From an uncultured Thermotogae bacterium (lineage in GTDB: Bacteria > Bipolaricaulota > Bipolaricaulia > UBA7950 > UBA9294): a DNA stretch of 55,201 nucleotides. The notes beneath the pieces were generated by a model. The model saw only the letters and a program-made list of their open reading frames with translations, was not told the origin of the DNA and did not search any database. Shown piece after piece: positions 3,401-45,967 of the stretch. Where the stretch lies: NCBI GenBank assembly GCA_964552295.1, contig CAZKFV010000094.1, positions 1 through 55,201 on the forward strand. Direction: 5' to 3'. Position 1 is the stretch's first letter. Every line of letters starts with the position of its first letter. The position numbers were made by a program, and so were the translations under genes.

Positions 3401-3484
3401 CGTATCAGTTTTTTTATCTAGTATTTATTACAAAATCAGGTTTTACAATCTACGTAGGGCTTTGCTTTTTATGTGTTCACCAAG

Positions 3485-3528
3485 GGGGACTGGCTCAGGC
3501 GAGCAAGAACGAGGCTGTGCCTGTCCCA
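3485..3528 (-). repeat. 44-bp REP-like imperfect palindrome, copy B (inverted relative to 329-372)
   Basis: Reverse complement reads GGGACAGGCACAGCCTCGTTCTTGCTCGCCTGAGCCAGTCCCC versus copy A GGGGACAGGCACAACCTCACTATTGCTCGGTCGAGCCAGTCCCC. Confidence 0.75.
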
Positions 3529-3785
3529 GAAGCCCACGCTACAACACTTCATCCCGCATGGGCGCGGAGGCGCAGGGGAAAGCACAAAGCTAACGAGGCA
3601 TAAGCAACGGATCAAGTATTACGGGGTAAGGATTAGGTAAAGTAACGTGGGAGGCAAATCAACGTGGTAGATAAACTACGCACGGTACACCACACGCTAC
3701 AGCGGCAAAAGCATCTCCAAACTTGTCTTGATGTAGCGTTGGAGCTGGTCTCCAACGTTGGGTTTTTGAGAAATCAATCCCAAGC

Positions 3786-3905
3786 GGGCCTGTCTGCATG
3801 CGAAGGACAGGCAGAAGCAGAGATGCAGAGGAGAAGCAAAAAAGAAATAAGTGTGCGAAGCCTTTAAGAAGTGGTTCTCCGCGTCTGGGCTCCTCTGCGG
3901 GAGAA
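3786..3905. repeat. Stacked palindromic repeats (GCCTGTC...GACAGGC; CAGAGATGCAGAGGAG...CTCCGCGTCTG...CTCTGCG)
   Basis: Short hairpin related to the core of the element at 3933, followed by a long imperfect purine-rich/pyrimidine-rich inverted repeat. Confidence 0.5.
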
Positions 3906-3932
3906 AAGCTGTTAAGCATGTAAAGGACTGCA

Positions 3933-4169
3933 TCGCGCAGGGACCTGTCTGCGCCTGCCTGTGCGTGTACGCACGCAGACAGGTCCGAAGGACAGGCAGG
4001 CGCATAGACGCAGGGGGCAGAGGAAAGCAGTAGGGTTTGGAAAGAAGATAGAAGGGGTTTTCCTTGAGCCCTCTCAGCGTCTCGAGCGAGCATAGCGAGC
4101 GGGCGGGAGAAAGGTTTGTGTCAGTTATAATTTGCAATCTTTGTTACGCACTGTAAACAGCGAAGAGCC
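3933..4169 (+). mobile_element. ~237-bp non-coding dispersed composite repeat, copy 1 (MITE/REPIN-like or structured RNA)
   Basis: Colinear high-identity second copy at 49249-49471 in the same orientation; internal 13-bp inverted repeats; no credible ORF. Confidence 0.75.
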
Positions 4170-4464
4170 TTTTTCTTAATCACCAATCACAGATAGCTTC
4201 CACGTCTCTCTTGTAATGTGATCTTTCTTGATAAGTGCCTGGAACTACCCAGTAAAACACAGGGAGGAACCCAATCAATACATGTTTTGGTCGTTTTCGC
4301 CTAGAATAATTTAGCATGCAAGAGCATCCATGATTGTTTACTTTATATTCTAGGGTTTGACTCGTTCATGTTCTATTCTGTCTTTAGGTAGAAAGGCCTA
4401 TATGCTGCCAACTTTACTGGCCGTGATGGACCTTTTTGGTTATCCTTCAACACATGCTAGGCAA

Positions 4465-4490
4465 CTGTGGGAAAGCGCCCGCTTTTTTTG
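4465..4490 (+). terminator. Weak terminator/attenuator-like hairpin immediately upstream of the EamA RBS
   Basis: GTGGG-aaagcg-CCCGC followed by T7, ending a few nt before AAGGAGG (4494-4500). Confidence 0.35.
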
Positions 4491-4506
4491 TTCAAGGAGG
4501 CACATC

Positions 4507-5376
4507 ATAGATGTCTCGATCTTATTAGCCGTATCTAGCGCTGCTTTATGGGGAGGAGGGCAAGTGATTGCCAAGCGCGGACTTGAGGATACGTCCCTTC
4601 CTCTGTTTGGAAGCGTGCGTTCCTTTTCTGCGCTGTTGTTTGTGGTTCCTTTTGGCCTTTTGACCATGGGCTTTCCAATTGGGTCTTTGTCCCTTCTTGG
4701 AGTAGCCGTGCTGGGTGGCGTGCTGGACTCGTTTGTGGGGACGCTTTTATACATGATCGCGCTTCGTACCAGCCCAGCGCATGAGGTGGTTCCTCTGTCC
4801 AACACAGCTCCTTTCTGGGGAGTTGTAGCGGCTGTAGTTCTGATCGGTGAGACGCCCCGAGTTGCCTCCTTTGTTGCAGCAGCTCTGGTGATAGTGGGTG
4901 CTTACTTCTTGTCCTCTCATAGAGGTCGAAGCGATGTTTCCAGCAGTCGGTTTGGTCCCTGGTTTGCACTTGCTGCGGGCGCGGTATGGGGGGTCGCTGA
5001 GATTGCGCCAACAAAGTACTGCCTGTCTAACGGAATGGCCCCAACAACGTATCAGCTTGTGGTAGTTCTAGCTTCTGGACTAGGGTGGGCTTGTTACCTT
5101 TTGCTTAAAGAAAAGGTGCGATCTGTCAGCTGGTCCCGTCAGGGAATTGGGATAGCTATACTTACAGGGTTCACTAACTTGTTTCTAGGGTGGATATTCT
5201 GGCTACTGGCGCTTGATCGCGCCCCAGCAAGCCTTATTTCTCCTATTAGGGGGCTAGTGGTTCTGTTTGGATTCATAGCCAGTGTCGTGTTTCTTAAAGA
5301 GCGTCCATCCAAGCGTGCTGGTCTGGGAGTATTGCTGATAGTTGCTGGCGTTACTTTGGTGTCGTTAGCCTGGTAG
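4507..5376 (+). CDS. EamA/DMT family transporter (probable non-canonical ATA start)
   Basis: Multiple hydrophobic helices in two EamA repeats (LLYMIALRTSPAHEVVPL; WLLALDRAPASLISPI, FLKERPS); perfect SD AAGGAGG 6 nt before ATA at 4507. The ORF-track upstream extension from 4357 looks non-coding. Confidence 0.8.
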   Translation: MDVSILLAVSSAALWGGGQVIAKRGLEDTSLPLFGSVRSFSALLFVVPFGLLTMGFPIGSLSLLGVAVLGGVLDSFVGTLLYMIALRTSPAHEVVPLSNTAPFWGVVAAVVLIGETPRVASFVAAALVIVGAYFLSSHRGRSDVSSSRFGPWFALAAGAVWGVAEIAPTKYCLSNGMAPTTYQLVVVLASGLGWACYLLLKEKVRSVSWSRQGIGIAILTGFTNLFLGWIFWLLALDRAPASLISPIRGLVVLFGFIASVVFLKERPSKRAGLGVLLIVAGVTLVSLAW

Positions 5377-5494
5377 GGTTAATTCTTGGAGCAGTTGGTG
5401 TCAAGCGGGCTAGGAGTGTTGTACAATGTATGGTTTGCTCCAATCAGCGTAGTTGCTTTGGCACAGATTTGTTATTCAAAAGGAGGAGAGGTAG

Positions 5495-5776
5495 ATGTTT
5501 AAGACAAATGAGTATTTTGAGGGGAAGGTAAAGTCGATTTCTTTTCAAGGTGAAGGGGGACCGGCAACGGTAGGGGTTATGGCTGTTGGCGAATACGAGT
5601 TTGGGACATCGACTAAGGAGATCATGACAGTTACCAGCGGGAAGCTGACTGTAAAGCTGCCAGGATCTGATGACTGGAATGATTACGAGCCCTATGACAC
5701 GTTTACCGTGGAGCCAAATCAGAAATTTCAGTTGAAGGTTACGCAGGAATCATCGTATATCTGCCTGTATCGCTAA
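5495..5776 (+). CDS. ppnP: Pyrimidine/purine nucleoside phosphorylase (DUF1255 cupin)
   Basis: [15 protein letters not shown]...[15 protein letters not shown]...EIMTVTSG...YICLY; SD GGAGG. Confidence 0.93.
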
Positions 5777-5905
5777 AGCAGGCTTTTGCTTACATGAAGA
5801 ATCACTACAAGCCTTCTAGTAATTTTGCTTGCAAATAAGGATGGCATATCATTAAGGCGCATAAGCCGCAAATCTCCTGTTTTGCAACTTTTGAGTTGAC
5901 AGCAA

Positions 5906-6781
5906 ATGTATGCCCAAATCGATAGGCGAACCCTGATTGCCTTAGCGTTTGTCCTGGCCTTTTGGTCATCTGCTTTTGCGGCCATTCGGGCTGGGCTTGT
6001 CGCCTATGATGCGGGCGAGTTGGCTTTGCTTCGTTTCTTGACAGCCTCAGCTGTACTAGCTGTTTATGCAATTGCAAGACGCATGCGCCTTCCCAAGCTG
6101 CGCGACGTCCCAGTCATTATCTTACTTGGGTTATTGGGGATAACCCTCTACCACCTCTTGCTGAACGTGGGAGAGGTGACGGTGACAGCTGGATCGGCCA
6201 GCATGCTCATAGCTTCAGCGCCTATCTTTACAGCGCTACTTGCGCACTTCATTCTTGGGGAAAGATTTCGCTTGATTGGATGGGCTGGACTAGCTATTAG
6301 CTTCTTTGGAGTGGTCCTCATTGCTTTTGGCGAAGGTGGTGGAGTAAGGCTTGAAACAGGTGCTCTTCTTATCTTATTGGCCGCTATCTCAACCAGTCTG
6401 TATAGCGTTTTGCAAAAGCGATTCATCAAGCGGTACACGCCACTGGAGTTTACAACCTATGTCATCTGGGCAGGAACACTGCCCATGTTGGTCTTCTTTC
6501 CAAGCCTCATAAGGTCGGTTCAAACAGCGCCCATCTCTGCCACTGCGGCGGTGTTGTATCTAGGGATATTCCCCGCTGCAATAGCTTACGTGCTTTGGGT
6601 GTATGCGCTATCGCGTTCGCCTGCTTCAAACGTAGCTAGCTTGCTTTACCTTAATCCAGTACTTGCTATTCTTATCGCCTGGCTGTGGCTTCGCGAGATA
6701 CCAACAATCTTATCCCTATTGGGCGGCGCTGTTGCGCTTGCGGGGGTTCTGGCAACTAACCTTCATGCCTCATCGAGATAG
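5906..6781 (+). CDS. EamA/DMT family transporter
   Basis: [70 protein letters not shown]. Confidence 0.92.
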
Positions 6782-6863
6782 TGGCCCAGAATGCCAGCTT
6801 TAATTAGTGACAAAAGTGGTTTCACCGGAGGTTGTGCTTGGAAACAAATCTTGAGAACCCAGC

Positions 6864-7559
6864 TTATACTGGCTTTTCGAGTTCTCCAGCCTCTTGCAGG
6901 TAATCAATGATCCCTTGCAGCAGCCCTTGGGCTATCTTGTCCTGGTAGGCTGAATCAAGTAGTTTTTCTCTTTCCTCCGGGGAGCTTAGGAAGCCAACTT
7001 CTGCCGATACGGCGGGAAGCTTGGTGTGCTGCAAATATAGGGACTGTGAGCGCACCCCGCGATCACGTGCCTGCGTAGAATCGATCAGCGAGTGCTGAAC
7101 CAATTCCGCTAACTTCCAGCTCGGGTCATCCTGGGCCCTGGTGTCATCGACGAGGGTTTCAACTCCGTGTACGCCTTCGTCACTGAAGGAGTTTACGTGT
7201 ACCGATAGGAAGATAACAGCTCCGGCCTTTTCTGCCAGTTCAAGCCGGAGTTCATTATCTACGGTGATATCGCTTGTTCGAGTAAGCACCGCCTCTATCT
7301 GGGGCTCCTGCTTAAGTAGCTCCACGAGCCGATTGACAATTTGCAGGTTGAGATCCTTCTCCAGGACTTCGCCGGCGACTCCACCAGGATCTCTTCCGCC
7401 GTGGCCTGGATCAAGGCCGATAGTGACAACGGGCCTCTCCGGCTCTGTAACGACCGGTGGTTCAGCAGGAGGTGCGCTGCGCTTAAATACGCCAGCCAAG
7501 GCGAGAGACCCGATGATCACGGCAATCAATACAAGAAGTGCTATTCCACGCCTAGTCAT
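6864..7559 (-). CDS. N-acetylmuramoyl-L-alanine amidase (Amidase_3), N-terminal anchor
   Basis: IGLDPGHGGRDPG, EKDLNL, LTRTSD, FLSVHVN, AEVGFLS zinc/catalytic motifs. Confidence 0.93.
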   Translation of the reverse strand: MTRRGIALLVLIAVIIGSLALAGVFKRSAPPAEPPVVTEPERPVVTIGLDPGHGGRDPGGVAGEVLEKDLNLQIVNRLVELLKQEPQIEAVLTRTSDITVDNELRLELAEKAGAVIFLSVHVNSFSDEGVHGVETLVDDTRAQDDPSWKLAELVQHSLIDSTQARDRGVRSQSLYLQHTKLPAVSAEVGFLSSPEEREKLLDSAYQDKIAQGLLQGIIDYLQEAGELEKPV

Positions 7560-7746
7560 GATTCTATCTTAGCCACTATCAATATGGCCTTACCCGCTCT
7601 GTGTCCGGTTGATAAGGTCCATTAGTTGCATCGGATTGATTGACTCGTGTCCTATGATAGCAGGGGGCATCGGTTCTTCTAGCGATGATTGGCGAAACTG
7701 TTTGCTATTGACTACAAGTCAACTGATGACCATGATGGGATAGGAG

Positions 7747-9756
7747 GTGGTAAAAACGGCGATTTTACCGTGGAGCAACCTAAAGAAGGTGTTTAGTATC
7801 CTCAAGTCGTCCCTATCGCCAAACCAGATCGCGTTCTCGTTTGCCCTTGGGGTATTTGCTGGTGTTCCTCCAATGGGTCTTCACGTAATCATCCCAGCAA
7901 CCCTTGCTCTTCTTATCCGTGGAAGTTTTCGCGCATTCTTGCTGTCTATGGGTTTGTTCAAGCTAATCTCGATTGGTGTTGCTCCGTTTAGCTACGCTAT
8001 TGGCAGGTTTCTGTTGGATACTAGCCGTGGGCTTGATTCCATGTGGCGTGCGTTAACCCACCTGCCTGTGGCAGCGCCAATGGGCTATAACCGCTACCTG
8101 TTGTTGGGAGCGCTTAGTCTATCGCTTGCGATAGCTATTCCGGTGTTCTTCGCGGTTCGCCTTGTTGTTGTTAAATACCGAAAAAGCTTCACTAATTGGG
8201 TTTCTGGCTTGAGTGTTTCCGCTAATTTACGGAAAAGAAAATGGGCAAGCTTCTTACGTTGGCTTTTTGTAGGCGGAAAGCCGAAGTACGGTACTTACAA
8301 GGCCCCGCGCGGCGTCTTTAGATACATCAGAAAAGGCGGGCTGGTGATTGTTCCCGTTGCCTATTTAGTTTGCTACCTGCTGGCAGCGTTGATTGTTCCG
8401 TTCTTGTCCGGCACAATTGCCACCTCCGCCGCTTCCTACGTCATTGGAGGAGAAGTAGCTGTCAAAAAGAGCTCCTTCAGCCTATTTACAGGAAGGCTAA
8501 ACCTAACAGATCTTTCCATTCAGGACCCCGATAAACCTGAAGAAAACGTGCTAGAAATCCCATTGTTAACACTGGATGCGGGTATGCTGCCGCTGCTTGA
8601 AAAGAGGGTGGTGTTCAATGCTGTAGAAATCAGTGATGCGTACATGCATGTGGTAAGACAGGAGGACGGAACGCTCAATGTGGATGACTTCAGCACAGGC
8701 TGGAACGCAGAAGGCTATATGGAATGGGCAAGAAAACATGCAAATGATGTCGATTGGTGGAGTTTATTGCAGCGATTAATCGAGTATATGGGTCAGCCTC
8801 GCCCACGTGAGCCAAAGGCTGATTTGTCGCAATATGCGGGCGGGCGATCCTTTTCTCCCTATAGTACGGTGTTTGCTGTGGAACAGTTTACCCTGGGGAA
8901 GATTCATGTAAGCCTTGAGGATAGGCGCAATTTTGATCAAGGCTTTCCGCCTTTGACTCTCACGGATGTGGAGATTGAAAACCTAGCGTTTCCTGCAGAG
9001 CTTGCGAGCGATCCTGTCAAAATCAAGATAAACGGTAGAGTGGGACAGGCAGATCAGCAAAATGATGGATACCGACAGGCCTCTTTCCTGTTAACAGTGG
9101 AGTTGGATAATCGCCAAGAGCCGGCAGTGCATGAGTACAATCTTGAGGTGCAGGACATGAACCTGACGCAGATGTCTTGGCTGTACAATACCAGCCTTCC
9201 GTTAGTGATAATCTCTGGGAGAGCAACGCTGAGCGCTTCTGTGACAATCACTGGAGAGCAGGCGGAGGGAGGGGCCTCTCTTGCTTTGCAGGACTTAGTC
9301 ATTGCTCAGTCCCCCGGGGTGCAGTTGTTTGGGCTCTCACAGGAGCTTACGCAGAGGTCAATAGAGGGCATTAACCGGTATTCTCAGGATCTGCCGATCG
9401 TGATTGGTGTTGGAATCGACGGCAGCGCTGATGCGCCGCAGGTTCACTGGCAAGAGCCTTTGTTGGAGATTGCCCGTCAGGGGTTAATGCTGGAGGGAAA
9501 ACGTGAGCTTCAGGGGGCGATTGACCAGCTTGGTGCTAAAATAGGAACCTCTGCCCCAGGGCCTGACGTGACGCTTACCCCTGGTTACCAGCAGTTGCAA
9601 GAACAGGCTGAAGATTATGTGAGAAAGGCTATCGCTGGCGATGCTATCGCTAGCGATGCTATCGCTGGTGATGATGAGCAAAGCACTCCTGAGACGACAG
9701 AATTGTTCAAAAGCATACTTGATAAGCTGTTTCCCCGCGACAAGGAAGGTGAGTAA
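7747..9756 (+). CDS. Membrane protein: TIGR03546/DUF2062-like N-terminus fused to an AsmA/DUF748 (TIGR03545)-like domain
   Basis: SPNQIAFSFALGVFAG hydrophobic N-domain; later SFSLFTGRLNLTDLSIQDPDKPEENVLEI...TLDAGMLPLLEKRVVFNAVEI...VVRQEDGTLNV typical of AsmA-like beta-taco starts. Confidence 0.6.
   Translation: MVKTAILPWSNLKKVFSILKSSLSPNQIAFSFALGVFAGVPPMGLHVIIPATLALLIRGSFRAFLLSMGLFKLISIGVAPFSYAIGRFLLDTSRGLDSMWRALTHLPVAAPMGYNRYLLLGALSLSLAIAIPVFFAVRLVVVKYRKSFTNWVSGLSVSANLRKRKWASFLRWLFVGGKPKYGTYKAPRGVFRYIRKGGLVIVPVAYLVCYLLAALIVPFLSGTIATSAASYVIGGEVAVKKSSFSLFTGRLNLTDLSIQDPDKPEENVLEIPLLTLDAGMLPLLEKRVVFNAVEISDAYMHVVRQEDGTLNVDDFSTGWNAEGYMEWARKHANDVDWWSLLQRLIEYMGQPRPREPKADLSQYAGGRSFSPYSTVFAVEQFTLGKIHVSLEDRRNFDQGFPPLTLTDVEIENLAFPAELASDPVKIKINGRVGQADQQNDGYRQASFLLTVELDNRQEPAVHEYNLEVQDMNLTQMSWLYNTSLPLVIISGRATLSASVTITGEQAEGGASLALQDLVIAQSPGVQLFGLSQELTQRSIEGINRYSQDLPIVIGVGIDGSADAPQVHWQEPLLEIARQGLMLEGKRELQGAIDQLGAKIGTSAPGPDVTLTPGYQQLQEQAEDYVRKAIAGDAIASDAIAGDDEQSTPETTELFKSILDKLFPRDKEGE
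9628..9672 (+). repeat. In-frame 15-bp tandem repeat x3 (AIAGD/AIASD/AIAGD)
   Basis: gctatcgctggcgat gctatcgctagcgat gctatcgctggtgat. Confidence 0.9.
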
Positions 9757-36385: not shown

Positions 36386-37297
36386 ATGAAAACAAAGGAC
36401 CTTGTAGCGCTTTCGTATCTCACTGTGGAGGAGATGTATGAGATACTTGAAACAGCACGTAGTCTGAAACTCGAACACCGCGCTGGTGTAAAACACGAGA
36501 TGCTTTCAGGAAAGACACTAGCGATGATATTTGAGAAACCATCGCTAAGAACGCGGGTCTCATTTCAGAATGGCATGTACCAATTGGGCGGACACGCCAT
36601 ATACCTTGGGCCTGATGATATAAAGCTGGGAAAACGGGAGACCACGGAGGATATCGCGATGGTTTTATCCAGGTATGTTGATGGAATCATGGCCCGCGTT
36701 TTCGAGCATCAGACAATCGTTGACTTGGCTAAGTACGCCTCTGTGCCGGTTATCAACGCGCTGTGTGATCGCTATCACCCATGCCAGATCTTGGGAGACC
36801 TGCTTACTATTATGGAAAAAAGGCGGCAGCTTTCCGGTTTGACCCTCGCGTTTATTGGCGATGGCAACAATGTGGCGCACTCACTCATAAACGGTTGTGC
36901 CAAAGTTGGGATGGATTTTCGCATAGCTTGCCCTGAAGGTTATGAGCCTAATGAAGATATAGTACAGGAGGCGCGCTCCATTGGGGGCAAGGTCGAGATA
37001 ATACACGACCCTAACGAGGCAGCTAGAGGAGCTGATGTTTTGTACACGGATGTGTGGGCTAGTATGGGACAGGAAGTTGATTCCGAGCAGAAGAAGAACG
37101 CCTTTGTCGGATTCACCATAGATGAGAATTTGGTCAAGCTTGCCGATCGAGATGCGCTTGTCATGCACTGCCTGCCCGCTCACTACGATGAAGAAATCAC
37201 CTACGCAGCCTCGCGGAGTAAGGGAAGCGCAATCTTCGATCAGGCAGAAAACAGAATGCATGCGCAGAAGGCCGTGCTTGCGCTGGTTATGTCCTAA
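36386..37297 (+). CDS. argF: Ornithine carbamoyltransferase
   Basis: FEKPSLRTRVSF, HPCQ, GDGNNV, TDVWASMGQE, HCLPAH, QAENRMH. Confidence 0.96.
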   Translation: MKTKDLVALSYLTVEEMYEILETARSLKLEHRAGVKHEMLSGKTLAMIFEKPSLRTRVSFQNGMYQLGGHAIYLGPDDIKLGKRETTEDIAMVLSRYVDGIMARVFEHQTIVDLAKYASVPVINALCDRYHPCQILGDLLTIMEKRRQLSGLTLAFIGDGNNVAHSLINGCAKVGMDFRIACPEGYEPNEDIVQEARSIGGKVEIIHDPNEAARGADVLYTDVWASMGQEVDSEQKKNAFVGFTIDENLVKLADRDALVMHCLPAHYDEEITYAASRSKGSAIFDQAENRMHAQKAVLALVMS

Positions 37298-37300
37298 GAG

Positions 37301-38473
37301 GTGACCACGGTGAGCAATCAGCTTGTTCTTGGTTCCACAAACAAAGGTGACTGTACCGTTAGGGTAACAGAGTGTTTGGAACCCAGGATCAACATAGTGA
37401 CGGACAACGATCACCTGTTCGAAATGGGACTGCTTTCAGTGATAGAAGAATCGATGTCCGCATTAGGCACTGATACACTTTGCGTTGACCTGGAAGATCA
37501 TGGCGCTGTTGATTATGTGGTTATGGCAAGGGTTGAGGCGGCTGTGCGAGCAGTATCACCTCAGATAGGTGCGTGGCGGATAGGGACAAAGCAAGATAGC
37601 AGCACTAGGGACCGCCTGCGCAGAACTCGCCTTTACGCGCCTGGGAATAACCCTCACTTGCTGATGGGAGCAGAGCTATATGGTTCCGACTGCGTACTGC
37701 TGGACCTAGAAGATTCTGTTCCCCTATCAGAAAAGAATGTGGCGCGCATTCTGGTCAAGCATCTGCTGGCCGCAGTGGAGTTTCAAGAGGTGTGGGTGCG
37801 GATAGATCCACTTGAAACATGCGGAAGGGAAGATCTGGCAGAGGTGATGCTTGCTTCTCCACACGGTATATGTCTACCAAAGGCAGAGTCATGCAATGAT
37901 GTCTTTAAACTAGAAGAAGAAATGGCGGTTCTTGAAAGCAACCTAGAAATTGACCTCGGATCTACGTTCATAATGCCCATCATTGAGACTGGAAAAGGAG
38001 TGTTGAATGCTTTGGAGATAGCTTCCGCCAGCAAGCGGGTGGTAGTTATGGCCTTTGGTGCCGAGGACTACACGCGCGATGTTGGAGCAAATAGAACGCG
38101 GGAGGCGCTCTTGTATGCGCGCACGAAGATTGTAGCAGCGTGTGCCGCTTCGGGAATTCAGGCCTCAGATACGGTTTATGCGGACGTTGATGATGAAGAG
38201 GGCCTGATTGAGGAGACCAAGCATATTCGCGATCTTGGTTTTGTTGGTAAAGGGGCGATCAATCCTCGGCAGATAATGCCAATTCATGAGGTATTTCGCC
38301 CTACAGACGAACAGATTAAGTACGCTCGTGAAGTTATTGCTGTTGCCGACCAGGCAAAGGCTAAGGGGATTGGCGCAGTTGCACTACGTGGGAAGATGAT
38401 CGATTGGCCTGTTGTGGAAAGGGCCAAGAAACTAGTCGCGCATTTGGAACAGCTCGAGGAAAAATGGAGATAA
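37301..38473 (+). CDS. citE: Fusion of a degenerate citrate-lyase ACP (CitD-like) and a citryl-CoA lyase (CitE/HpcH family)
   Basis: N-domain EDHGAVDYVVMARVEAAV matches the CitD C-terminal motif; C-domain LYAPGNNP, LDLEDSV, IIETGKG, AFGAEDY, GKGAINPRQ. Confidence 0.85.
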   Translation: MTTVSNQLVLGSTNKGDCTVRVTECLEPRINIVTDNDHLFEMGLLSVIEESMSALGTDTLCVDLEDHGAVDYVVMARVEAAVRAVSPQIGAWRIGTKQDSSTRDRLRRTRLYAPGNNPHLLMGAELYGSDCVLLDLEDSVPLSEKNVARILVKHLLAAVEFQEVWVRIDPLETCGREDLAEVMLASPHGICLPKAESCNDVFKLEEEMAVLESNLEIDLGSTFIMPIIETGKGVLNALEIASASKRVVVMAFGAEDYTRDVGANRTREALLYARTKIVAACAASGIQASDTVYADVDDEEGLIEETKHIRDLGFVGKGAINPRQIMPIHEVFRPTDEQIKYAREVIAVADQAKAKGIGAVALRGKMIDWPVVERAKKLVAHLEQLEEKWR

Positions 38474-40017
38474 GAAACGCACTGGGTAGGCAGATCCCCG
38501 AGAAGGTTGGAAACAGGCTACTGCGTCCGTTTGAGGGGGTTTTCGCTACCGTGCCAAGTGGCAGAAAAGCCACTCGCCCTCAAAAAACTGTTAGAAAAGG
38601 CGAGAACAAGGTGCTTTCTTCTATCCAAAAGTCCATAGAAGCAACTGGTCTTGAAAGTGGCATGACGATCTCATTTCACCATTCATTCCGTAATGGTGAC
38701 TACGTGGTTAACATGGTGCTAGATGCCTGTGCTAAGATGGGAATAGAAGATTTACGTCTATTTGCAACAGCGCTTTTTCCGGTGCATGAACCCGTGATTG
38801 AGCATATCAAAAACGGCGTTGTAACACGAATTGAAGGCTCAATGAACGGGCCAATTGGGGCATTCGTATCTCAAGGGGGTCAGCTGAAGAGCCCGCCGGT
38901 GCTTCGTTCGCACGGTGGTCGTTGGAGGGCGGTGGAGGCTGGTGATGTTCATATCGATGTTGCGTTCATCGCTGCTTCCCAGGCGGATCCATACGGAAAT
39001 GCTAATGGCATATATGGCAAGACCCCTTGCGGACCGATCTCGTTTTCCATAGTGGATGCTCAATATGCGGAGAAAACCGTTGTAGTGACCAATGATCTAT
39101 CAAGATATCCAGCATACCCATTTGAGATTCAGCAGGGCTGGACAGATTACGTAGTAGTGGTAGATGAGATTGGAGATCCAAACAGCATTTCATCGGGAAC
39201 CCTTCAAATCACCCGTTCTCCGACTCGTTTAGGGATAGCTCGTCTGGCTGCAGCGGCAGTGAAGGCTTCTGGTTACATGAAGGATGGTTTCAGTTTTCAA
39301 GGAGGAGCTGGGGGTATATCACTAGCTGCTACAAAATTTGTGGGCGAGGAAATGGAACGGTCTGGAATTGTAGGCAGTTTTGCTATGGGTGGAGGAACAA
39401 GCTTGCTTGTAGATATTCTACATCGCGGATTGGTCCGGACTATCCTCGATGGGCAGGTATTCGATCTGGCAGCAGCAGAATCGATGCGAAATGATCCAAA
39501 CCATGTACTCATGGATCCTGGCCACTACGGCAACTATGACTCACGAGGTTGTGCTACGTACATGCTCGACGCGGCTTTCCTTGGGGCCACGGAAGTAGAT
39601 GTTGATTTCAATGTCAATGTAAACACCCACTCTGACGGCCAGCTTCTGCACGGAATTGGCGGTCACCAGGAGGTTGCTGTTGGAGCTAGCCTGACATTGA
39701 TTACCGTTCCTACCCTGAGAGGCAGGCTTCCTGTTATTGTAGATAAAGTGACTACAGTGACCACGCCAGGGGAGGTCATTGATGCTGTTGTAACCGAGCG
39801 TGGTATCGCAGTGAATCCCAGAAGGGGTGATCTGAAAGAGCGTTTCCTGGCTGCAGGTCTTCCGGTTCGTGAGCTTGTAAACATCAAGCGAGAGGCAGAT
39901 CGCTTGGTTCGCCCTCTTCGAAAGCCGATATTTGGCGATGAGGTAATAGCAGTGATTGAGTGGCAGGATGGAAGTGTTATTGATGTTGTGCGAAAAGTAG
40001 TAGGATGGCGCAGTTAG
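38464..40017 (+). CDS. citF: Citrate lyase alpha subunit / citrate CoA-transferase
   Basis: MTISFHHSFRNGD, RSHGGR, SFQGGAGG, LGATEVDVDFNVNV, GIGGHQ, VTTPGEVIDAVVTERGIAVNP. Confidence 0.93.
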   Translation: MEIRNALGRQIPEKVGNRLLRPFEGVFATVPSGRKATRPQKTVRKGENKVLSSIQKSIEATGLESGMTISFHHSFRNGDYVVNMVLDACAKMGIEDLRLFATALFPVHEPVIEHIKNGVVTRIEGSMNGPIGAFVSQGGQLKSPPVLRSHGGRWRAVEAGDVHIDVAFIAASQADPYGNANGIYGKTPCGPISFSIVDAQYAEKTVVVTNDLSRYPAYPFEIQQGWTDYVVVVDEIGDPNSISSGTLQITRSPTRLGIARLAAAAVKASGYMKDGFSFQGGAGGISLAATKFVGEEMERSGIVGSFAMGGGTSLLVDILHRGLVRTILDGQVFDLAAAESMRNDPNHVLMDPGHYGNYDSRGCATYMLDAAFLGATEVDVDFNVNVNTHSDGQLLHGIGGHQEVAVGASLTLITVPTLRGRLPVIVDKVTTVTTPGEVIDAVVTERGIAVNPRRGDLKERFLAAGLPVRELVNIKREADRLVRPLRKPIFGDEVIAVIEWQDGSVIDVVRKVVGWRS

Positions 40018-40156
40018 TTGATAATTCCAGTTACATCTCCTAGAATTACCTCTTTGGTCTTCTGACAAGGTGAACAAGAAGACAGCATAAAAGCGTATTC
40101 AGTCTGGCAAATATAGTGCCTCATATTGAGGTTTGGAATTACTGAAGGAGGGTGTT

Positions 40157-41440
40157 GTGAGACTGTACGAGCATGAGGCAAAGAGGATATTCCAGTCCAA
40201 GGGGATACCTATACCGGAGCAGTATGGAGTAATTCATTCCCCTGAGCAGCTGGCAGAAGTAAAGGTAGAATATCCCGTTATGCTCAAAGCTGTAGTTCTA
40301 ATTGGGGGCAGGGGCAAAGCTGGGGGAATCAAAAGGGCTTCAGATCCAGAAGAGGCCAAGGCTAAGGCAGAGGAGCTGTTCAACCTCAAGATTCGGGGTT
40401 ATCCTGTGGAAAGCGTGCTTCTTGAAAGGGCGGTGGAGGAAATTGGAGCTTGCTACGTTGGGATAACTATGGACCCAGCAAGCTATAATAATGTCGTGAT
40501 TCTGAGCGCATCTGGTGGTGTAGAGATAGAGACGGTAGCTAAGGAGAAGCCAGAGGCAATTCATAGGTTTGAAGTTGTCGGAAATGAGCTGGAGCTGTCC
40601 AAGGAAATATCAGATGATCTGGCAGGCAAGCTTTCAAAAGATCTGGGGGAGCAGGCTGGCAATAAGGAACAGCTTTCACAAATTCTATCTAAGCTCTACG
40701 CAGTTTATCAGGATGTCGATGCAAAGGTCTGTGAGATCAATCCACTTATACTTACACCCGATGGCCCCATAGCAGCTGATGCTAAATTGGTGCTAGATGA
40801 TAACGCCCTTTTCCGGCAGGTGAAATTGCTGGAGCAGTTGGGTATTGCTGGAAAGAGGCATGACGTAGCAGAGTTGACATCTAATGAGAAGCGCGCGCAG
40901 AAAGCAGGCTTTCCGTATGTTGACCTCCTTGCAGAGGATGCTGCAAAGGATCCTAAAAAGCTGTATGTTGGACTTGTTCCTGGTGGCGCTGGTTATGGAA
41001 TCTTCTCCATCGATGAAGTGGCCAATATTGGGGACCGCTTCTTTCAGGGAAAAGTTGTTCCGGTCAACTTCATGGACTCTGGAGGTGGCCCTTCTCAAGG
41101 AAAAGTTGCAGAGATGTTTCATCTGCTCATGGATTATGAAAAGGTTGACATGATTATCACATCACGATTTGGTGGCGTATCAAGTTGTGATACTTTCATC
41201 CGTGGTCTTATCCAAGCCTTGAGAGAACGACATGAGGCTGGAGAAAGGGTAATTCCGGTATATGGGAGAATGGTAGGCACGGATCTTCCCAGCGCCAGGG
41301 CATATCTGGAAAAGGCAAAAGGGAGCCCTGCGGATCCAGCATTGGAGAAGATGACTATCATCGTTGGAAACCAGAAGATCATGGCTGATGTCATTAAAAA
41401 AGGGATTAGTAAGGCATTTGAAAGTAAGGGGTGGAACTGA
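40157..41440 (+). CDS. ATP-grasp acyl-CoA synthetase beta subunit (SucC/citryl-CoA synthetase large-like)
   Basis: LYEHEAK, KAVVLIGGRGKAGGI, SGGVEIE, EINPL, AADAKLVLDDNALFRQ, NFMDSGGG, FGGVSSCD; GTG start after SD AAGGAGG. Confidence 0.85.
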   Translation: MRLYEHEAKRIFQSKGIPIPEQYGVIHSPEQLAEVKVEYPVMLKAVVLIGGRGKAGGIKRASDPEEAKAKAEELFNLKIRGYPVESVLLERAVEEIGACYVGITMDPASYNNVVILSASGGVEIETVAKEKPEAIHRFEVVGNELELSKEISDDLAGKLSKDLGEQAGNKEQLSQILSKLYAVYQDVDAKVCEINPLILTPDGPIAADAKLVLDDNALFRQVKLLEQLGIAGKRHDVAELTSNEKRAQKAGFPYVDLLAEDAAKDPKKLYVGLVPGGAGYGIFSIDEVANIGDRFFQGKVVPVNFMDSGGGPSQGKVAEMFHLLMDYEKVDMIITSRFGGVSSCDTFIRGLIQALRERHEAGERVIPVYGRMVGTDLPSARAYLEKAKGSPADPALEKMTIIVGNQKIMADVIKKGISKAFESKGWN

Positions 41441-43575
41441 TGGAGCGAATATCAGCAGATCATGGAATGCTCTACTATCTTATCAAGCAATCTCATCCAG
41501 AGATAGCGGGGCATATCGAAGAAACCAATGAGATAGATACCATCGTTGTCGGTCTTGGTCGACAGGGAGCGCGGCATGCTGGATTGATGCAAGAGTTTGG
41601 AACTAAGATTACAGCTGGTATAGCTCCAGGCAGAGGTGGAACTCGTGTTCATGAAACCATTCCTGTATATGAAACCGTTAAGGATTGCCTCAAGGATCAC
41701 CCTTACATTGCTGCAGCAAGCATCTGGAAGCACTATTCAACAGCTAGGGATGCTACCATCGAGGTCATAGAAGCTGGTATTCCTGTCGTTGTTCTCATAA
41801 GTGAAGGGATACCCATTCGCGATGTTAGAGATATCTTGGTAGCCGCGAGGATGCATGGAGCGCTTCTGATTGGTGGGAATTCGCCTGGCGTAATATTTCC
41901 CCCCGAAAGGGTAAAAGTAGGCATGCTGCCTGATATTTTCTATCCAGAGGAAACGGGTTCCGGGCAGCTAGGCCCAAATGGAGTCACCATTATATCGCGT
42001 AGCGGTGCTATTCTTTACCATATGTCTGATGCGTTGGCTAGTGTAGGAATAGCTCAAAACGCCGTTATTGGAGTAGGTGGTGACGGCGCAATAGGATCTA
42101 CGTTCTCGGACCTGGTTCCCTTAGCCATGAAATATCCGCATACTGATCTGGTAGTGATTGCTGGAGAGATCGGTGGAATACAGGAGGAAAGGCTAGCCAA
42201 AGACATTGCGGATCACCCTGAGAAATATCCCAAGCCGATTATTGCCGAGATATCTGGGGCTCATGCTCCAGCAGGAAAGACCATGGGGCATGCTGGAGCG
42301 ATAGTCGCTCCAGGACAGTCTTATGGTACATTCGAGTCCAAAAGGTCTGCTTTGGAAAGTGCTGGTGTAACCGTGGTGAATTCGCAGTATGACCTAATCG
42401 TAGAAGTGGAAAAGAGCCTTGGCAAAAAGTATTTTGATACTGATAGGTATTATGAAAAGATGAGGACGATCTGGGAGGCTCCACCCAAGGCTCCAAGTTG
42501 GGCGACCCTGATAACCAAGGTGGAGCCGAACAATCTTATGCTTTCTGGCTATCCCCTTCAGCAGATAGTGGAACGAAAAACACTTCTCGAAACCGCTTGC
42601 TTGTTGGTCAAAGGGGAATTTCCGTCTCCAAAAGCTTTGGAAGAGCAAAGGAAGGTCGCGCTTCAAGCAGTGGCAGAATCCGGGCCAATTGTGAAGCTAG
42701 ATCAGGGTGAGGATGTATCCAAAACGCTGGCTAAAACCCTCCTGCTGGATAAGGCACTGGCCGCGTTCACCACTGTGGGAACTGACGGTGAAGTGCTGAA
42801 AACTAGCTATGCCCTGGGCCGAATAGCAAACTACTTGGGCACTATCTTGGGCACATCTTCTGCCTTGAAAGGATTGCCCGATGATATTAGCTTTGCTGAC
42901 GTAATCGGAAGGATTATTACCGGCAAAGCAGAATGTGGGAAGGATGTCTCCAAGATGCTGGAGAAAATGATTATAGCTTCCGTTGACCACGGGGTAACTC
43001 CTCCTTCTGCTCAAGCCACCTTAATTGCGGCTTCTACCAGGACGCCCTATGAGGTGGCTGTAGCTCATGGAGTGGGCGTAATCACCGACGTCCATGGTGG
43101 TGCTGGGGCAAAGGCAGCCGAGTTTTTCTCGCAATGTGTGTCTAGGGCGACTGCTAAAAACATAGATCTTGAGGGCGCCACCAGAGAAGTTATGAGCGAA
43201 TACATAAGGGATGGGCGTAGGATAGAAGGTATGGGACACAGGGTTCATACCAAGGATCCCCGACGTGACGTCCTGTGGAGTCTGGCAGATGAAGCAGGGA
43301 TTGCTGGAGACAACGTAGAGGTTTCAAAAATAGTTGCCGGCGTATTTAAGCAAGTGCGAGGGATGGATCTTCCCATAAATGTGGACGGCGTGATTGGTGC
43401 GATCGTCGCAGATATGAAACTTGATCCTTGGCTAGCCAAGGTGCTTTTCATTTGGGGCCGTGTCGCAGGTCTTTCTGCTCATTACTTCGAGGAGGTAGCT
43501 TCTCAACCTCAAATGAGAAGAATAAACTTCGGTGAAGTTGTCTATAAAGGAAAACCTTACCGAGACGTGCCATAA
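41440..43575 (+). CDS. Acyl-CoA synthetase alpha subunit (SucD-like) fused to a citryl-CoA lyase (citrate-synthase-fold) domain; AclA-like architecture
   Basis: GIAPGRGG, ISEGIP, IGGNSPG, SRSGAI, GEIGG, phospho-His motif GKTMGHAGA; C-terminal WATLITKVEPN, VDHGVTPPS, VHGGAG, GMGHRVHTKDPR, PINVDG. Confidence 0.88.
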   Translation: MERISADHGMLYYLIKQSHPEIAGHIEETNEIDTIVVGLGRQGARHAGLMQEFGTKITAGIAPGRGGTRVHETIPVYETVKDCLKDHPYIAAASIWKHYSTARDATIEVIEAGIPVVVLISEGIPIRDVRDILVAARMHGALLIGGNSPGVIFPPERVKVGMLPDIFYPEETGSGQLGPNGVTIISRSGAILYHMSDALASVGIAQNAVIGVGGDGAIGSTFSDLVPLAMKYPHTDLVVIAGEIGGIQEERLAKDIADHPEKYPKPIIAEISGAHAPAGKTMGHAGAIVAPGQSYGTFESKRSALESAGVTVVNSQYDLIVEVEKSLGKKYFDTDRYYEKMRTIWEAPPKAPSWATLITKVEPNNLMLSGYPLQQIVERKTLLETACLLVKGEFPSPKALEEQRKVALQAVAESGPIVKLDQGEDVSKTLAKTLLLDKALAAFTTVGTDGEVLKTSYALGRIANYLGTILGTSSALKGLPDDISFADVIGRIITGKAECGKDVSKMLEKMIIASVDHGVTPPSAQATLIAASTRTPYEVAVAHGVGVITDVHGGAGAKAAEFFSQCVSRATAKNIDLEGATREVMSEYIRDGRRIEGMGHRVHTKDPRRDVLWSLADEAGIAGDNVEVSKIVAGVFKQVRGMDLPINVDGVIGAIVADMKLDPWLAKVLFIWGRVAGLSAHYFEEVASQPQMRRINFGEVVYKGKPYRDVP

Positions 43576-43665: not shown

Positions 43666-44202
43666 ATGACAATGAGAGAAGATATCCTGCGGATTCTGCC
43701 TGAGATTGAGCTAATTGAAGACGAATCGTTACGCCAAATGGTGACAAAAACCTGGGAAGACGCGCTGGTTCGTGGCAAATGGGAGGCCTCTGATATCCAG
43801 AGTATGCCGTTTACCTTGGCCAAGAAAGTGGATATCAGCTTCGCCCAACATGTGCGAAGCGTAACCAAAATATCCCTTGCTGCGGTTGAGATATTCGATG
43901 AAATTTATAAGGGCAAGTTAACACTAAATCGCGACTTAGTTCTTGCTGGAGCACTGCTGCACGATGTGGGAAAGCTCCTGGAGATGGAGAAAGTTGACGG
44001 CGTATTTCGCAAGAGCCATGAGGGGAAACTTGTACGACATCCCTTCTCTGGGGTTGCACTTGCAGATGCAAACGGCGCTCCTCCGGAAGTGCAGCATATA
44101 ATCGGGACTCACTCCAAGGAGGGAGATCCGTACAAGCGCACGCCGGAGTCAGTTATCGTGCACTTGGCTGACTTTATGAACTTCGATACAGTGGAGGGTT
44201 GA
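43666..44202 (+). CDS. HD-domain (HDIG) metal-dependent phosphohydrolase
   Basis: QHVRSV, GALLHDVGKL, RHPFSG, IIGTHS, IVHLADF. Confidence 0.85.
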   Translation: MTMREDILRILPEIELIEDESLRQMVTKTWEDALVRGKWEASDIQSMPFTLAKKVDISFAQHVRSVTKISLAAVEIFDEIYKGKLTLNRDLVLAGALLHDVGKLLEMEKVDGVFRKSHEGKLVRHPFSGVALADANGAPPEVQHIIGTHSKEGDPYKRTPESVIVHLADFMNFDTVEG

Positions 44203-45479
44203 CAGAGATGGGAATGACGTTTGCCCAAAAGATCCTTTCCCAGAAAGCCGGCCTTGATCATGTTGAGGTAGGCCAGATAGTAGAGATCACGCCTGATTAC
44301 TGTATGTCTCACGACAACACAGCGGCTATTAGCAAGACCTTTGCTAGCATTGGAGTCGATCGCGTGAAGGACCCGGAGAAGTTTGTAATCATTCTCGATC
44401 ACACGGTTCCTGCGTCGACGGAGAAGTATGCTCTTGGACACAAGGAGATCCGCGAGTTTGTGGCGGCTCAGGGGATAGAAAACTTCTATGACGGCGGCGT
44501 TGGGATATGTCATCAAGTGTTGCCTGAGAGGGGGTTCGCTCTGCCTGGTACGCTGATCCTTGGTTCGGATTCCCATACCACAACTTACGGGGCATTCGGT
44601 GCTTTTTCTGCTGGTATTGGCCGTTCGGAAATGGCTGTTCTATATGCTACATCGAAGATATGGCTGAAGACCCCGGAGACTTTCAAGATAGTGATTAACG
44701 GTCAGTTGCGTGAACCTGTTACCTCAAAGGACCTCATGCTGAAAATAATCGGGGATATCGGTGCTGACGGAGCTCTCTATCGTTCCATCGAGTTTTCAGG
44801 TGAGGCAATTTCACAGATGAGCTTGGCATCGCGTATGGTGCTCTCCAACATGGCAATAGAGTGTGGAGCCAAGAATGGATACATAGCTCCTGACGAGAAT
44901 ACTTTCCGCTTTCTCGAGGGACGGGCGGTAAGGGACTATTACCCGTTATATCCTGATAGCGATGCTCAATATGAGAAAGAGCTTGAACTAGATGCCGCGC
45001 AGCTTGGTCCACAGGTAGCAAAACCACACACTGTGGATAATGTCTCGCCAGTGGAGCAGGTAGAAGGCACCAAGATTGATCAGGTCCTGCTGGGTACTTG
45101 TACCAACGGACGACTGGAAGATCTACGATTGGCAGCGAGGATTCTTTCTGGAAAGAAAATTGCCAAAGGTGTGCGAATGCTGATCCTTCCGGCATCGCAG
45201 GAGGTTCTTCTCGATGCTCTATCGGAGGGGTTGATCAGCATTTTTGTACGTGCGGGAGCTATTATGTTGAACCCGGGCTGCGGCCCTTGTTTAGGGGCGC
45301 ACCAAGGGGTGTTAGCTCCAGGCGAGGTTTGCTTGTCCACTGCTAACCGCAACTTCAAGGGTAGGATGGGGTCATCAGAGGCAGAGATCTACCTCGCATC
45401 CCCAGCCACAGTCGCTGCGTCGGCCCTTACCGGAGCAATCACTGATCCTCGCGATGTATTCCAAGGAGGTGTCAGATGA
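44199..45479 (+). CDS. leuC: 3-isopropylmalate dehydratase/homoaconitase-family large subunit (short LeuC/HacA type)
   Basis: MSHDNT, GICHQV, GSDSHTTTYGAFG, GTCTNGR and GCGPC [4Fe-4S] cysteines, STANRNFKGRMG. Confidence 0.88.
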   Translation: MTEMGMTFAQKILSQKAGLDHVEVGQIVEITPDYCMSHDNTAAISKTFASIGVDRVKDPEKFVIILDHTVPASTEKYALGHKEIREFVAAQGIENFYDGGVGICHQVLPERGFALPGTLILGSDSHTTTYGAFGAFSAGIGRSEMAVLYATSKIWLKTPETFKIVINGQLREPVTSKDLMLKIIGDIGADGALYRSIEFSGEAISQMSLASRMVLSNMAIECGAKNGYIAPDENTFRFLEGRAVRDYYPLYPDSDAQYEKELELDAAQLGPQVAKPHTVDNVSPVEQVEGTKIDQVLLGTCTNGRLEDLRLAARILSGKKIAKGVRMLILPASQEVLLDALSEGLISIFVRAGAIMLNPGCGPCLGAHQGVLAPGEVCLSTANRNFKGRMGSSEAEIYLASPATVAASALTGAITDPRDVFQGGVR

Positions 45480-45967
45480 GCAAGGGCAACGTGTGGAAAT
45501 ATGGAGACGATATCAACACAGACGTCATATTTCCCGGCAAGTACACGTATCAACCGTTAACCCCAGGAGAAATGGCGACCCACGCGATGGAGGATCTTGA
45601 CCCCGATTTTGCAACTAACGTCAAGCAGGGGGATGTTGTAGTAGCTGGGGCTAACTTTGGCTGCGGCTCGTCACGCGAGCAAGCAGCCACATGCCTGAAA
45701 GCTGCAGGAGTGGCGGCGGTAATTGCTAAGTCCTTCTCGCGCATCTTCTTTAGAAATGCCATCAATAGTGGTCTTCCCGTAATTGAGTTGAAGCGTGGAA
45801 TCGAGAGTATAAAAAAGCAAGACACAGTTGAGATTGACTTTGAAAATGGGATTGTGATACACGAAGGTAATGAATATCACTTTCCCGCCCTGCCAAAGGA
45901 AGTGCTGGCAATTCTCGAAGATGGCGGTCTTATTGCGCATGTAAGAAAGGAGTTAGGAAAAGTATAA
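45476..45967 (+). CDS. leuD: 3-isopropylmalate dehydratase/homoaconitase-family small subunit
   Basis: DINTDVIFPGKY, NFGCGSSREQA, AKSFSRIFFRNAINSGLP, ILEDGGLI. Confidence 0.88.
   Translation: MSKGNVWKYGDDINTDVIFPGKYTYQPLTPGEMATHAMEDLDPDFATNVKQGDVVVAGANFGCGSSREQAATCLKAAGVAAVIAKSFSRIFFRNAINSGLPVIELKRGIESIKKQDTVEIDFENGIVIHEGNEYHFPALPKEVLAILEDGGLIAHVRKELGKV

Follow-up and report, generated by a model that had tools for sequence, protein, structure and literature searches.

A citrate lyase-like CitD–CitE fusion lacking the cofactor-anchoring serine in a Bipolaricaulota genome and its relatives

Introduction

Textbook citrate lyase is defined by a tethered CoA arm, a phosphoribosyl-dephospho-CoA group borne by Ser14 of the small carrier subunit CitD, and by three helper enzymes, CitC, CitX and CitG. 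In the canonical cycle, CitF makes citryl-S-ACP (ACP, acyl carrier protein) from acetyl-S-ACP and citrate, and CitE converts it to oxaloacetate and acetyl-S-ACP (PMC3832036). Here we describe a relative in which a CitD-like carrier domain without this serine is fused to CitE and encoded next to CitF. It lies in a 55,201-nt stretch of DNA, hereafter the window, of an uncultured bacterium of the Bipolaricaulota (GenBank assembly GCA_964552295.1, contig CAZKFV010000094.1, here C94). The host genome is a 1.70-Mb metagenome-assembled genome (MAG), 88.7% complete and comprising 129 contigs.

The closest described system is the classical citrate (pro-3S)-lyase (EC 4.1.3.6; E. coli citCDEFXG, Klebsiella, lactic acid bacteria). 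The window locus has homologous alpha, beta and gamma parts in the same gene order, a CitF above the equivalog cut-off and the CitD motif GALD..(I/V).AR.EA. Unlike the classical lyase, it has the gamma part fused to beta, Lys in place of Ser14 (Lys or Arg across the family) and no CitG, CitX or CitC; its CitE and CitD fall under their equivalog cut-offs, and its CitE belongs to a separate clade. The neighbours differ as well, being HD-domain, LeuCD-type, homoisocitrate-dehydrogenase-like and PrpD-like proteins here, as compared to a citrate transporter and oxaloacetate decarboxylase in classical loci.

The same fused architecture next to CitF is described for Ignavibacterium album (IALB_1147/1146), where it was speculated to serve ATP-independent citrate cleavage in the reverse tricarboxylic acid (TCA) cycle (PMC3362086). 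Our comparison with this system draws on the paper's own description, which is silent on the missing serine and accessory genes. It is also the single mention of the fusion that we found in the literature, where we found no account of serine loss or of a citrate lyase free of a cofactor arm.

Stand-alone CitE-like lyases (human CLYBL, Yersinia RipC/(S)-citramalyl-CoA lyase, malyl-CoA lyase and M. tuberculosis CitE) have the same TIM barrel with its Mg and substrate motifs and provide a precedent for the use of diffusible CoA esters, often in combination with a CoA-transferase. Unlike the fusion, to which they are ~30% identical, they possess neither a carrier-like domain nor a CitF-type (family II) transferase partner. 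AclBA and the CcsAB + Ccl system cleave citrate via free citryl-CoA, and a related pair is encoded in the window operon; in contrast to CitEF, these enzymes have unrelated folds, depend on ATP and yield acetyl-CoA instead of acetate. Plant BADC proteins, biotin-less homologues of BCCP, are likewise a carrier fold without a prosthetic group that is kept under selection, although they regulate a complex still holding a loaded carrier, which the window system does not have.

Results

The Carrier Domain Has Lost Its Anchor Serine

The fusion gene and its partner comprise the following features:

37310..38473, + strand: carrier-like domain–CitE fusion (gamma-beta), 387 aa (PF06857 + PF03328)
37310..37555, + strand: CitD-like carrier domain without the cofactor-anchoring serine, aa 1–82 (PF06857, alignment, predicted fold)
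37343..37345, + strand: Lys12 codon AAA at the CitD Ser14 position (BLASTP and MAFFT against E. coli CitD)
37622..38473, + strand: CitE domain (acyl-CoA lyase, TIM-barrel), aa 105–387 (PF03328, TIGR01588, invariant motifs)
38464..40017, + strand: CitF, citrate-lyase alpha-type CoA-transferase (TIGR01584, PF04223, PDB 2hj0)

The open reading frame listed at 37301–38473 most probably starts at GTG 37310, 7 bases past a GAGGTGA ribosome-binding motif, and this start yields a protein of 387 aa, as long as nearly all of its homologues. Residues 7–84 match the Pfam family PF06857 (citrate lyase/malonate decarboxylase ACP) with 45.4 bits, above the cut-off of 25.1 (48.4 bits in the genome-wide profile scan of the MAG), and residues 108–322 match PF03328 (HpcH/HpaI, CitE) with 174 bits; a linker of ~20 residues joins the carrier-like domain to CitE. 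On the CitD equivalog TIGR01608 the carrier domain reached 37.5 bits, under the cut-off of 63.5. More than 120 homologues, 54–99% identical, have the same fused architecture.

As a reference we used E. coli CitD from an annotated citCDEFXG locus. BLASTP placed VLGSTNKGDCTVRV opposite VAGTLESGDVMIRI, which sets Lys12 on Ser14, and also recovered the C-terminal motif GA(V/L)D..(V/I).AR.EA, with EDHGAVDYVVMARVEA opposite DDKGALDCILRARLEA; the MAFFT register was identical. A preliminary description of the locus had reported a CitD-like domain fused to the N-terminus of CitE and a lysine at the Ser14 position, and both observations are borne out by the two Pfam matches and by the concurring alignments.

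Among 36 aligned relatives, Lys occupies the anchor column in 32, and the invariant columns of the carrier domain are G8, D14, C15, L36, G40, G65, D68, R74 and E76. None of these residues has a hydroxyl group and no Ser or Thr of the domain is invariant in this set, Ser9 being replaced by Thr, Ala or Gly in some members. The possibility that a neighbouring Ser or Thr is modified instead, which had been raised in the preliminary description, is therefore very unlikely.

The carrier domain keeps the motif GALDYV..AR.EAA..R, and its mean pairwise identity is 0.46 versus 0.68 for the CitE domain. In the AlphaFold2 model of the fusion (pLDDT 92, pTM 0.89), it has a predicted compact beta-beta-beta-alpha-beta-alpha fold with a pLDDT of 86–96, and the pTM suggests that it would pack in a defined manner against the CitE barrel. 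No PDB sequence match was found for the carrier domain, and the best 50 Foldseek matches of the fusion model span about 240–334 columns, the size of the CitE barrel.

The sole consistent change relative to canonical CitD is that of (E)-S to x-(K/R), and in those archaeal variants whose anchor column reads E, A or P, Arg follows as the next residue. The presence of Lys or Arg, or of Arg at the next position in the archaeal variants, indicates that the former phosphodiester site is under selection for positive charge, while a Lys-linked cofactor is argued against because Arg cannot carry one. A basic residue here would be in keeping with a salt bridge, either to CitF or to one of the phosphates of free CoA.

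Three other attachment sites were considered and rejected. Lys12 as the site of a lipoate, biotin or other Lys-linked arm does not agree with the Arg found in about half of the family or with the E, A and P of archaeal members. Cys15 as a direct thioester carrier is weakened by its invariance in close relatives only, since V, L, I, A or G occur elsewhere, and by its occurrence in Ser-type CitDs too. A shift of the anchor to the −1 Ser of the widespread RSDC motif meets Gly, Arg or Ala at that position in the window's own family; this Ser is also frequent in canonical CitDs, where it is unused (E. coli has Gly), and CitG is missing from 42/43 Lys/Arg-type genomes.

CitG, CitX and CitC Are Missing Across the Family

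Profile searches of the whole window genome gave no match to CitG (PF01874), CitX (PF03802) or CitC (PF08218), and the only PF06857 domain in this genome is that of the fusion. Since a MAG may miss genes, relatives were checked too. CitX and CitG were each found in 0/48 Bipolaricaulota and Thermoplasmata genomes with a Ser-less carrier; both were detected in a canonical control genome, whose Ser-type CitD is a separate protein and which also encodes CitE, CitF and a CitXG fusion. In a multi-phylum set, CitG was present genome-wide in 1 of 43 Lys/Arg-type genomes versus all 7 Ser-type genomes, the latter being those without accessory genes seen in the neighbourhood. Pooled, CitG was found in 1/91 Lys/Arg-type versus 8/8 Ser-type genomes (p = 5e-11).

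The local context gave the same contrast: CitC, CitX or CitG lies within 8 kb of 0/56 Lys/Arg-type loci versus 10/20 Ser-type loci (p = 2e-7), and no CitC was found within 8–10 kb of Lys/Arg-type loci. The absence of the accessory genes is a family trait and not an assembly gap. What had been noted for the operon, namely that citC, citG and citX are missing, thus holds for the entire MAG and for the family, and an intact citCDXG elsewhere is excluded. One Arg-type genome (G214, locus L114) contains CitG, possibly for a second system or a malonate decarboxylase.

Family Distribution and CitE Phylogeny

A first survey, which scanned one genome per species by alignment, recovered ~60 Bipolaricaulota and ~19 Thermoplasmata (archaeal) loci with the fusion. 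Within Bipolaricaulota it was present in 78/151 sampled genomes, and in 51/55 of the window's own family. A second scan, seeded by distant fused proteins, yielded 80 loci from WOR-3, Cloacimonadota, Bacteroidota, Ignavibacteria, Planctomycetota, Acidobacteriota, KSB1, Marinimicrobia, Bathyarchaeia, Firmicutes and others, so that the fusion is found in more than 10 phyla of bacteria and archaea. At the Ser14 column, 51 of 52 fused proteins of the second scan have Lys or Arg, with the consensus G..(V/I)RSDC(W/Y), the Ignavibacteria loci being Arg-type; where CitD is a separate protein, the residue is Ser in 20 loci and Lys in 4. An HMMER scan of 1.84 billion cluster representatives, with fused forms counted among the best 150, gave 54 fused representatives carrying K (25), R (23), S (3), T (1), V (1) or Q (1) at this column, that is, Lys/Arg in 48/54.

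Unfused Lys/Arg-type CitDs adjoin CitE and CitF at loci L076, L149, L155, L160 and L167, with AGTDEKSDAV in Faecousia/Oscillospiraceae bins and AGTLEKGDVM in a DHVE2 archaeon as examples, and these genomes are also without CitG. Serine loss thus occurs without the fusion as well.

We further built a quick maximum-likelihood tree of CitE domains. A clade of 67 rows (SH-aLRT 97) takes in 48 of the 54 Lys/Arg-fused rows of the tree, including the window and Thermoplasmata, as well as one unfused Arg-type CitD/CitE pair. A separate group is made up of E. coli CitE, the canonical control and the Ser/Thr fused forms P0196, P0133 and P0166, and the fused Ser form P0144 (SSSDC, with Ser at the anchor column) sits within the Lys/Arg clade. 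As the tree is a quick one and its root was not fixed, we make no claim as to whether the Ser or the Lys/Arg type is ancestral.

CitF and the CitE Active Site

The last 10 nt of the fusion gene are also the first of citF, for which a GAGG motif of its own is present. The protein scored 557.5 bits on TIGR01584, above the cut-off of 501.45, and 506 bits on PF04223, and it matches PDB 2hj0 with an E-value of 8e-146. CitF accompanies the fusion in 50/50 genomes tested, being unlinked in some archaea.

In the CitE domain, the DLEDS, R164, E226 and GAED motifs are invariant among aligned relatives. The top Foldseek structures are CLYBL, malyl-CoA lyase, (S)-citramalyl-CoA lyase and M. tuberculosis CitE (TM 0.84–0.87), and the nearest structures were all crystallised with free CoA or CoA esters. 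The domain is thus an HpcH/HpaI TIM barrel with its Mg and substrate motifs, and the presence of CitF and a CitD-like domain sets it apart from a stand-alone lyase.

Gene Neighbourhood

The following genes surround the fusion and CitF:

36386..37297, + strand: ornithine carbamoyltransferase (OTCase; TIGR00658, 402 bits, cut-off 281)
40133..41440, + strand: SucC-like ATP-grasp subunit of a pair resembling ATP-citrate lyase (ACL)/citryl-CoA synthetase (Pfam and NCBIfam profiles)
41431..43575, + strand: SucD-like subunit fused to a citryl-CoA-lyase/citrate-synthase-fold domain (PF02629, PF00549, PF00285)
43666..44202, + strand: small HD-domain metal hydrolase (PF01966)
44199..45479, + strand: LeuC-type (aconitase family) hydro-lyase large subunit (TIGR01343 hacA_fam, 567 bits)
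45476..45967, + strand: LeuD-type small subunit with specificity loop FPGKYTYQPL (profile match)

The order across ~60 Bipolaricaulota loci is OTCase, fusion, CitF, HD, LeuC and LeuD, with genes that overlap or nearly abut. OTCase is the first gene of this conserved cluster; it lies directly upstream of the fusion in most of these loci, and in the window its stop is 12 nt ahead of the fusion gene. The ACL-like pair between CitF and HD was seen only in the window and at L011 among the ~60 loci, and it is set off from its neighbours by 115 and 90 nt, a promoter-like site lying at 40018–40046. Its SucD-like fusion has a nearly full-length citrate-synthase-fold domain and scored 196 bits on the citryl-CoA lyase model NF004866, under the cut-off of 245. 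The pair is similar to "type II ACL", the fused citryl-CoA synthetase/lyase, and the genome also encodes a true AclBA, on contig C80.

The gene order changes outside Bipolaricaulota. In Thermoplasmata, HD, fusion and (CitF) follow one another in translational coupling, while other phyla have operons of IsoDH, HD, a fused LeuCD-type hydro-lyase, an MmgE/PrpD-like protein, the fusion and CitF, with the same HD family. The hydro-lyase of these operons scored 844–855 bits on the homoaconitase equivalog TIGR00139 (cut-off 530). The loop PGKYTY is common to the window LeuD and to "homoaconitase"-type proteins clustered with Lys/Arg-type CitEF in other phyla; the LeuD of the leu operon has PARYLNL.

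In the window genome, a homoisocitrate-dehydrogenase-like enzyme and an MmgE/PrpD-like dehydratase are encoded on another contig (C72:9963-12595, minus strand). They are 55–64% and 45–52% identical, respectively, to their counterparts in the operons of other phyla, and at locus L037 all seven module genes are contiguous. Since the C72 genes are orthologous to operon genes elsewhere, we regard the module as split over two contigs in the window genome. The best model for the C72 dehydrogenase is homoisocitrate dehydrogenase (344 bits, under the cut-off of 540), and the PrpD-like protein reached 93 bits on the true PrpD model (cut-off 575). The PrpD-like gene is present in 31/35 Bipolaricaulota genomes with the fusion and in no Thermoplasmata.

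The window LeuC is the third paralogue in the genome, the others being on C28, with the leuCD-leuB set of the leu operon, and on C80. The latter contig carries, at 1707–9016, an aconitase (633 aa), an IclR-type regulator, an isocitrate dehydrogenase (IDH), AclB and AclA. With these separate aconitase/IDH/AclBA and leuCD-leuB sets, the module represents a third paralogous set.

The HD protein family was surveyed at loci L003-L086 and L098-L165. Its metal ligands H62, H99-D100, H125, H149 and D169 are invariant. In the second scan, an HD gene was found near 15/51 Lys/Arg-type loci versus 0/20 Ser-type loci (p = 0.007), and the family is linked to the Lys/Arg carrier–CitE fusion in Bipolaricaulota, Thermoplasmata, Bacteroidota, Ignavibacteria, Planctomycetota, Cloacimonadota and others. 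Searches by PDB sequence, NCBIfam and AlphaFold (pLDDT 95) with Foldseek returned generic HD matches only, the best being the YhaM HD domain (TM 0.65).

Discussion

We consider it likely, at a probability of about 0.7, that the fusion and CitF constitute a CoA-transferase and acyl-CoA lyase pair that works without a cofactor arm and is primed by free acetyl-CoA. With Lys at the anchor, no conserved hydroxyl and no CitG, CitX or CitC, the carrier-like domain does not appear to be loadable, and the thioester chemistry would therefore have to use diffusible CoA esters. The preliminary description had likewise proposed an ACP-independent CitEF acting on free CoA thioesters: the loss of anchor and machinery stands, and the proposal fits the chemistry of CitF and CitE, while the use of free CoA is what we infer from them.

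In such a cycle, CitF would move CoA from acetyl-CoA onto a hydroxy-tricarboxylate substrate and release acetate, and the CitE domain would split the acyl-CoA so formed, giving a 2-oxoacid and acetyl-CoA, the latter of which would re-enter the cycle. Acetyl-CoA would act as a catalytic primer and no re-acetylating ligase would be required; CitC would be unnecessary because the cellular acetyl-CoA pool replaces re-acetylation. The carrier-like domain would most likely dock CitE onto CitF, and its conserved basic residue may hold the phosphates of free CoA. When isolated, the alpha and beta subunits of citrate lyase reportedly take acetyl-CoA and citryl-CoA instead of the ACP-bound forms, a finding attributed to Dimroth and Eggerer in 1975 and to Heider's work on family II CoA-transferases in 2001.

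Several points weigh against this mechanism. Canonical subunits are poor with free CoA esters, so that efficient turnover would need adaptations, and we identified none. The CitE domain reached 278 bits on the equivalog TIGR01588, under the cut-off of 443.4, which together with the module context means that "citrate lyase" may be the wrong name. Finally, the K/R-x-D-C loop is strongly conserved and could signal an undescribed modification or another role.

The substrate would be citrate or a close homologue; we place citrate at roughly even odds and a homologue appreciably lower. The same arm-free mechanism could thus operate on a non-citrate substrate such as homocitrate, interconverting 2-oxoadipate-type acids with 2-oxoglutarate-type acids and acetate, which we regard as possible, if on balance unlikely. 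The module stands as a third paralogous set beside the AclBA-IDH-aconitase cluster and the leu operon, the hydro-lyase of other phyla passes TIGR00139 and shares the GKYTY loop with the window LeuD, the partner dehydrogenase has homoisocitrate dehydrogenase as its best model, though below the cut-off, and a PrpD-like dehydratase belongs to the module in 31/35 Bipolaricaulota genomes. However, CitF passes the citrate-lyase alpha cut-off, an ACL-like citryl-CoA pair has been recruited into the same operon, neither the dehydrogenase nor the PrpD-like protein reaches a family cut-off, no lysine context was found in the window genome, and the Thermoplasmata HD-fusion-CitF set has no PrpD-like gene. 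A non-citrate substrate had also been suggested in the preliminary description, with citramalate as an example; the gene module and the separate ACL/aconitase/IDH set support the general idea indirectly, whereas nothing specific speaks for citramalate.

More speculatively, and in our view rather improbably, the Lys/Arg fusion and CitF could catalyze the C–C-cleaving or -forming step of an undescribed pathway of anaerobes from more than 10 phyla, together with the HD protein, a Lys4-like hydro-lyase, the PrpD-like protein and the homoisocitrate-dehydrogenase-like enzyme. The net result would be a one-acetate change of a 2-oxo-dicarboxylic acid by way of free CoA esters, with CoA held non-covalently by the basic residue. 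An example would be the conversion between 2-oxoadipate and 2-oxoglutarate plus acetate via a homocitrate stereoisomer that, by analogy with 2-methylcitrate, would need a PrpD-type dehydratase.

A covalent arm on another residue, e.g., Cys15 or the basic residue, attached by an unrecognised enzyme that could be the HD protein, is an improbable alternative to the arm-free mechanism. It would account for the high conservation of the K/R-x-D-C loop, with Cys15 invariant in 36/36 close relatives, and for the linkage of the HD protein to Lys/Arg-type systems only. Yet no single attachment chemistry fits an anchor residue that is Lys or Arg, and E, A or P in some archaea; the Cys at +3 is often V, L, I, A or G in the family and is present in Ser-type CitDs as well; and the HD protein, whose fold match is generic, is missing near 36/51 Lys/Arg loci. 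HD enzymes are phosphoester hydrolases, and we know of none that acts as a transferase, which speaks against an arm attached by this protein.

We give still less credence to the carrier domain as a neutral leftover, or to the whole pair as a decaying or regulatory pseudo-enzyme. The carrier domain does evolve faster than CitE, as the lower identity indicates, but it retains nine invariant residues, the GALDYV..AR.EAA..R motif and a confident predicted fold, while the fusion is kept in more than 10 phyla with intact CitE motifs, an ever-present CitF and translational coupling. The term "structural relic" used in the preliminary description is likewise not borne out, in view of these invariant residues and of the Lys or Arg kept at the anchor in 48/54 representatives and 51/52 loci. 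Clear purifying selection, combined with an anchor position that is almost always Lys or Arg, points to a function that was kept but changed. A normal CitDEF citrate lyase whose accessory genes and intact CitD were lost to incomplete assembly, as a MAG of 88.7% completeness in 129 contigs might allow, is refuted by the encoded protein itself having no serine, by the single ACP domain in the genome and by the distribution of CitG (missing from 90/91 Lys/Arg-type and present in 8/8 Ser-type genomes) and CitX (missing from 48/48).

These results place the window protein in a large, ancient sister clade of citrate lyase that lacks both the tethered arm and the helper enzymes and spans Bipolaricaulota, Thermoplasmata, Bathyarchaeia, Bacteroidota, Ignavibacteria, Planctomycetota, Cloacimonadota, Acidobacteriota and others. 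For thousands of proteins annotated as "citrate lyase beta subunit", and for the conclusions on a reverse TCA cycle or citrate fermentation that were based on them, the assumed mechanism is probably wrong and the assumed substrate perhaps so too. The reasons for which a covalent swinging arm arose or was lost, and the role of a carrier fold without cargo, could be studied in this clade as a natural experiment. The clade also draws attention to a conserved six- or seven-gene module in uncultured anaerobes that dominate sediments and digesters.

Two further roles were considered and rejected. As a replacement of citrate synthase, Lys/Arg-type CitEF would agree with the absence of a true synthase from 48/50 Bipolaricaulota and Thermoplasmata genomes (present in 2/50; no GltA-type enzyme was found in the window genome), but PF00285 occurs in 25/43 Lys/Arg-type genomes of other phyla, 24 of these 25 encoding a full-length citrate synthase, so there is no general anticorrelation between CitEF and citrate synthase. 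As the first half of aminoadipate lysine biosynthesis, the module would be expected alongside genes that we did not find in the window genome: a LysW-like ORF and LysX were not found, nor were homologues of LysA, DapB and ArgB with E. coli queries.

This genome encodes OTCase and ArgH, and its only ArgC match is weak and looks like aspartate-semialdehyde dehydrogenase. The organism could be a lysine auxotroph, and its OTCase may be catabolic or act on imported ornithine or citrulline. In a Thermoplasmatales MAG (L081:5278-8889), the HD-fusion pair adjoins urocanase and histidine ammonia-lyase genes, a context that hints at an amino-acid-catabolic setting.

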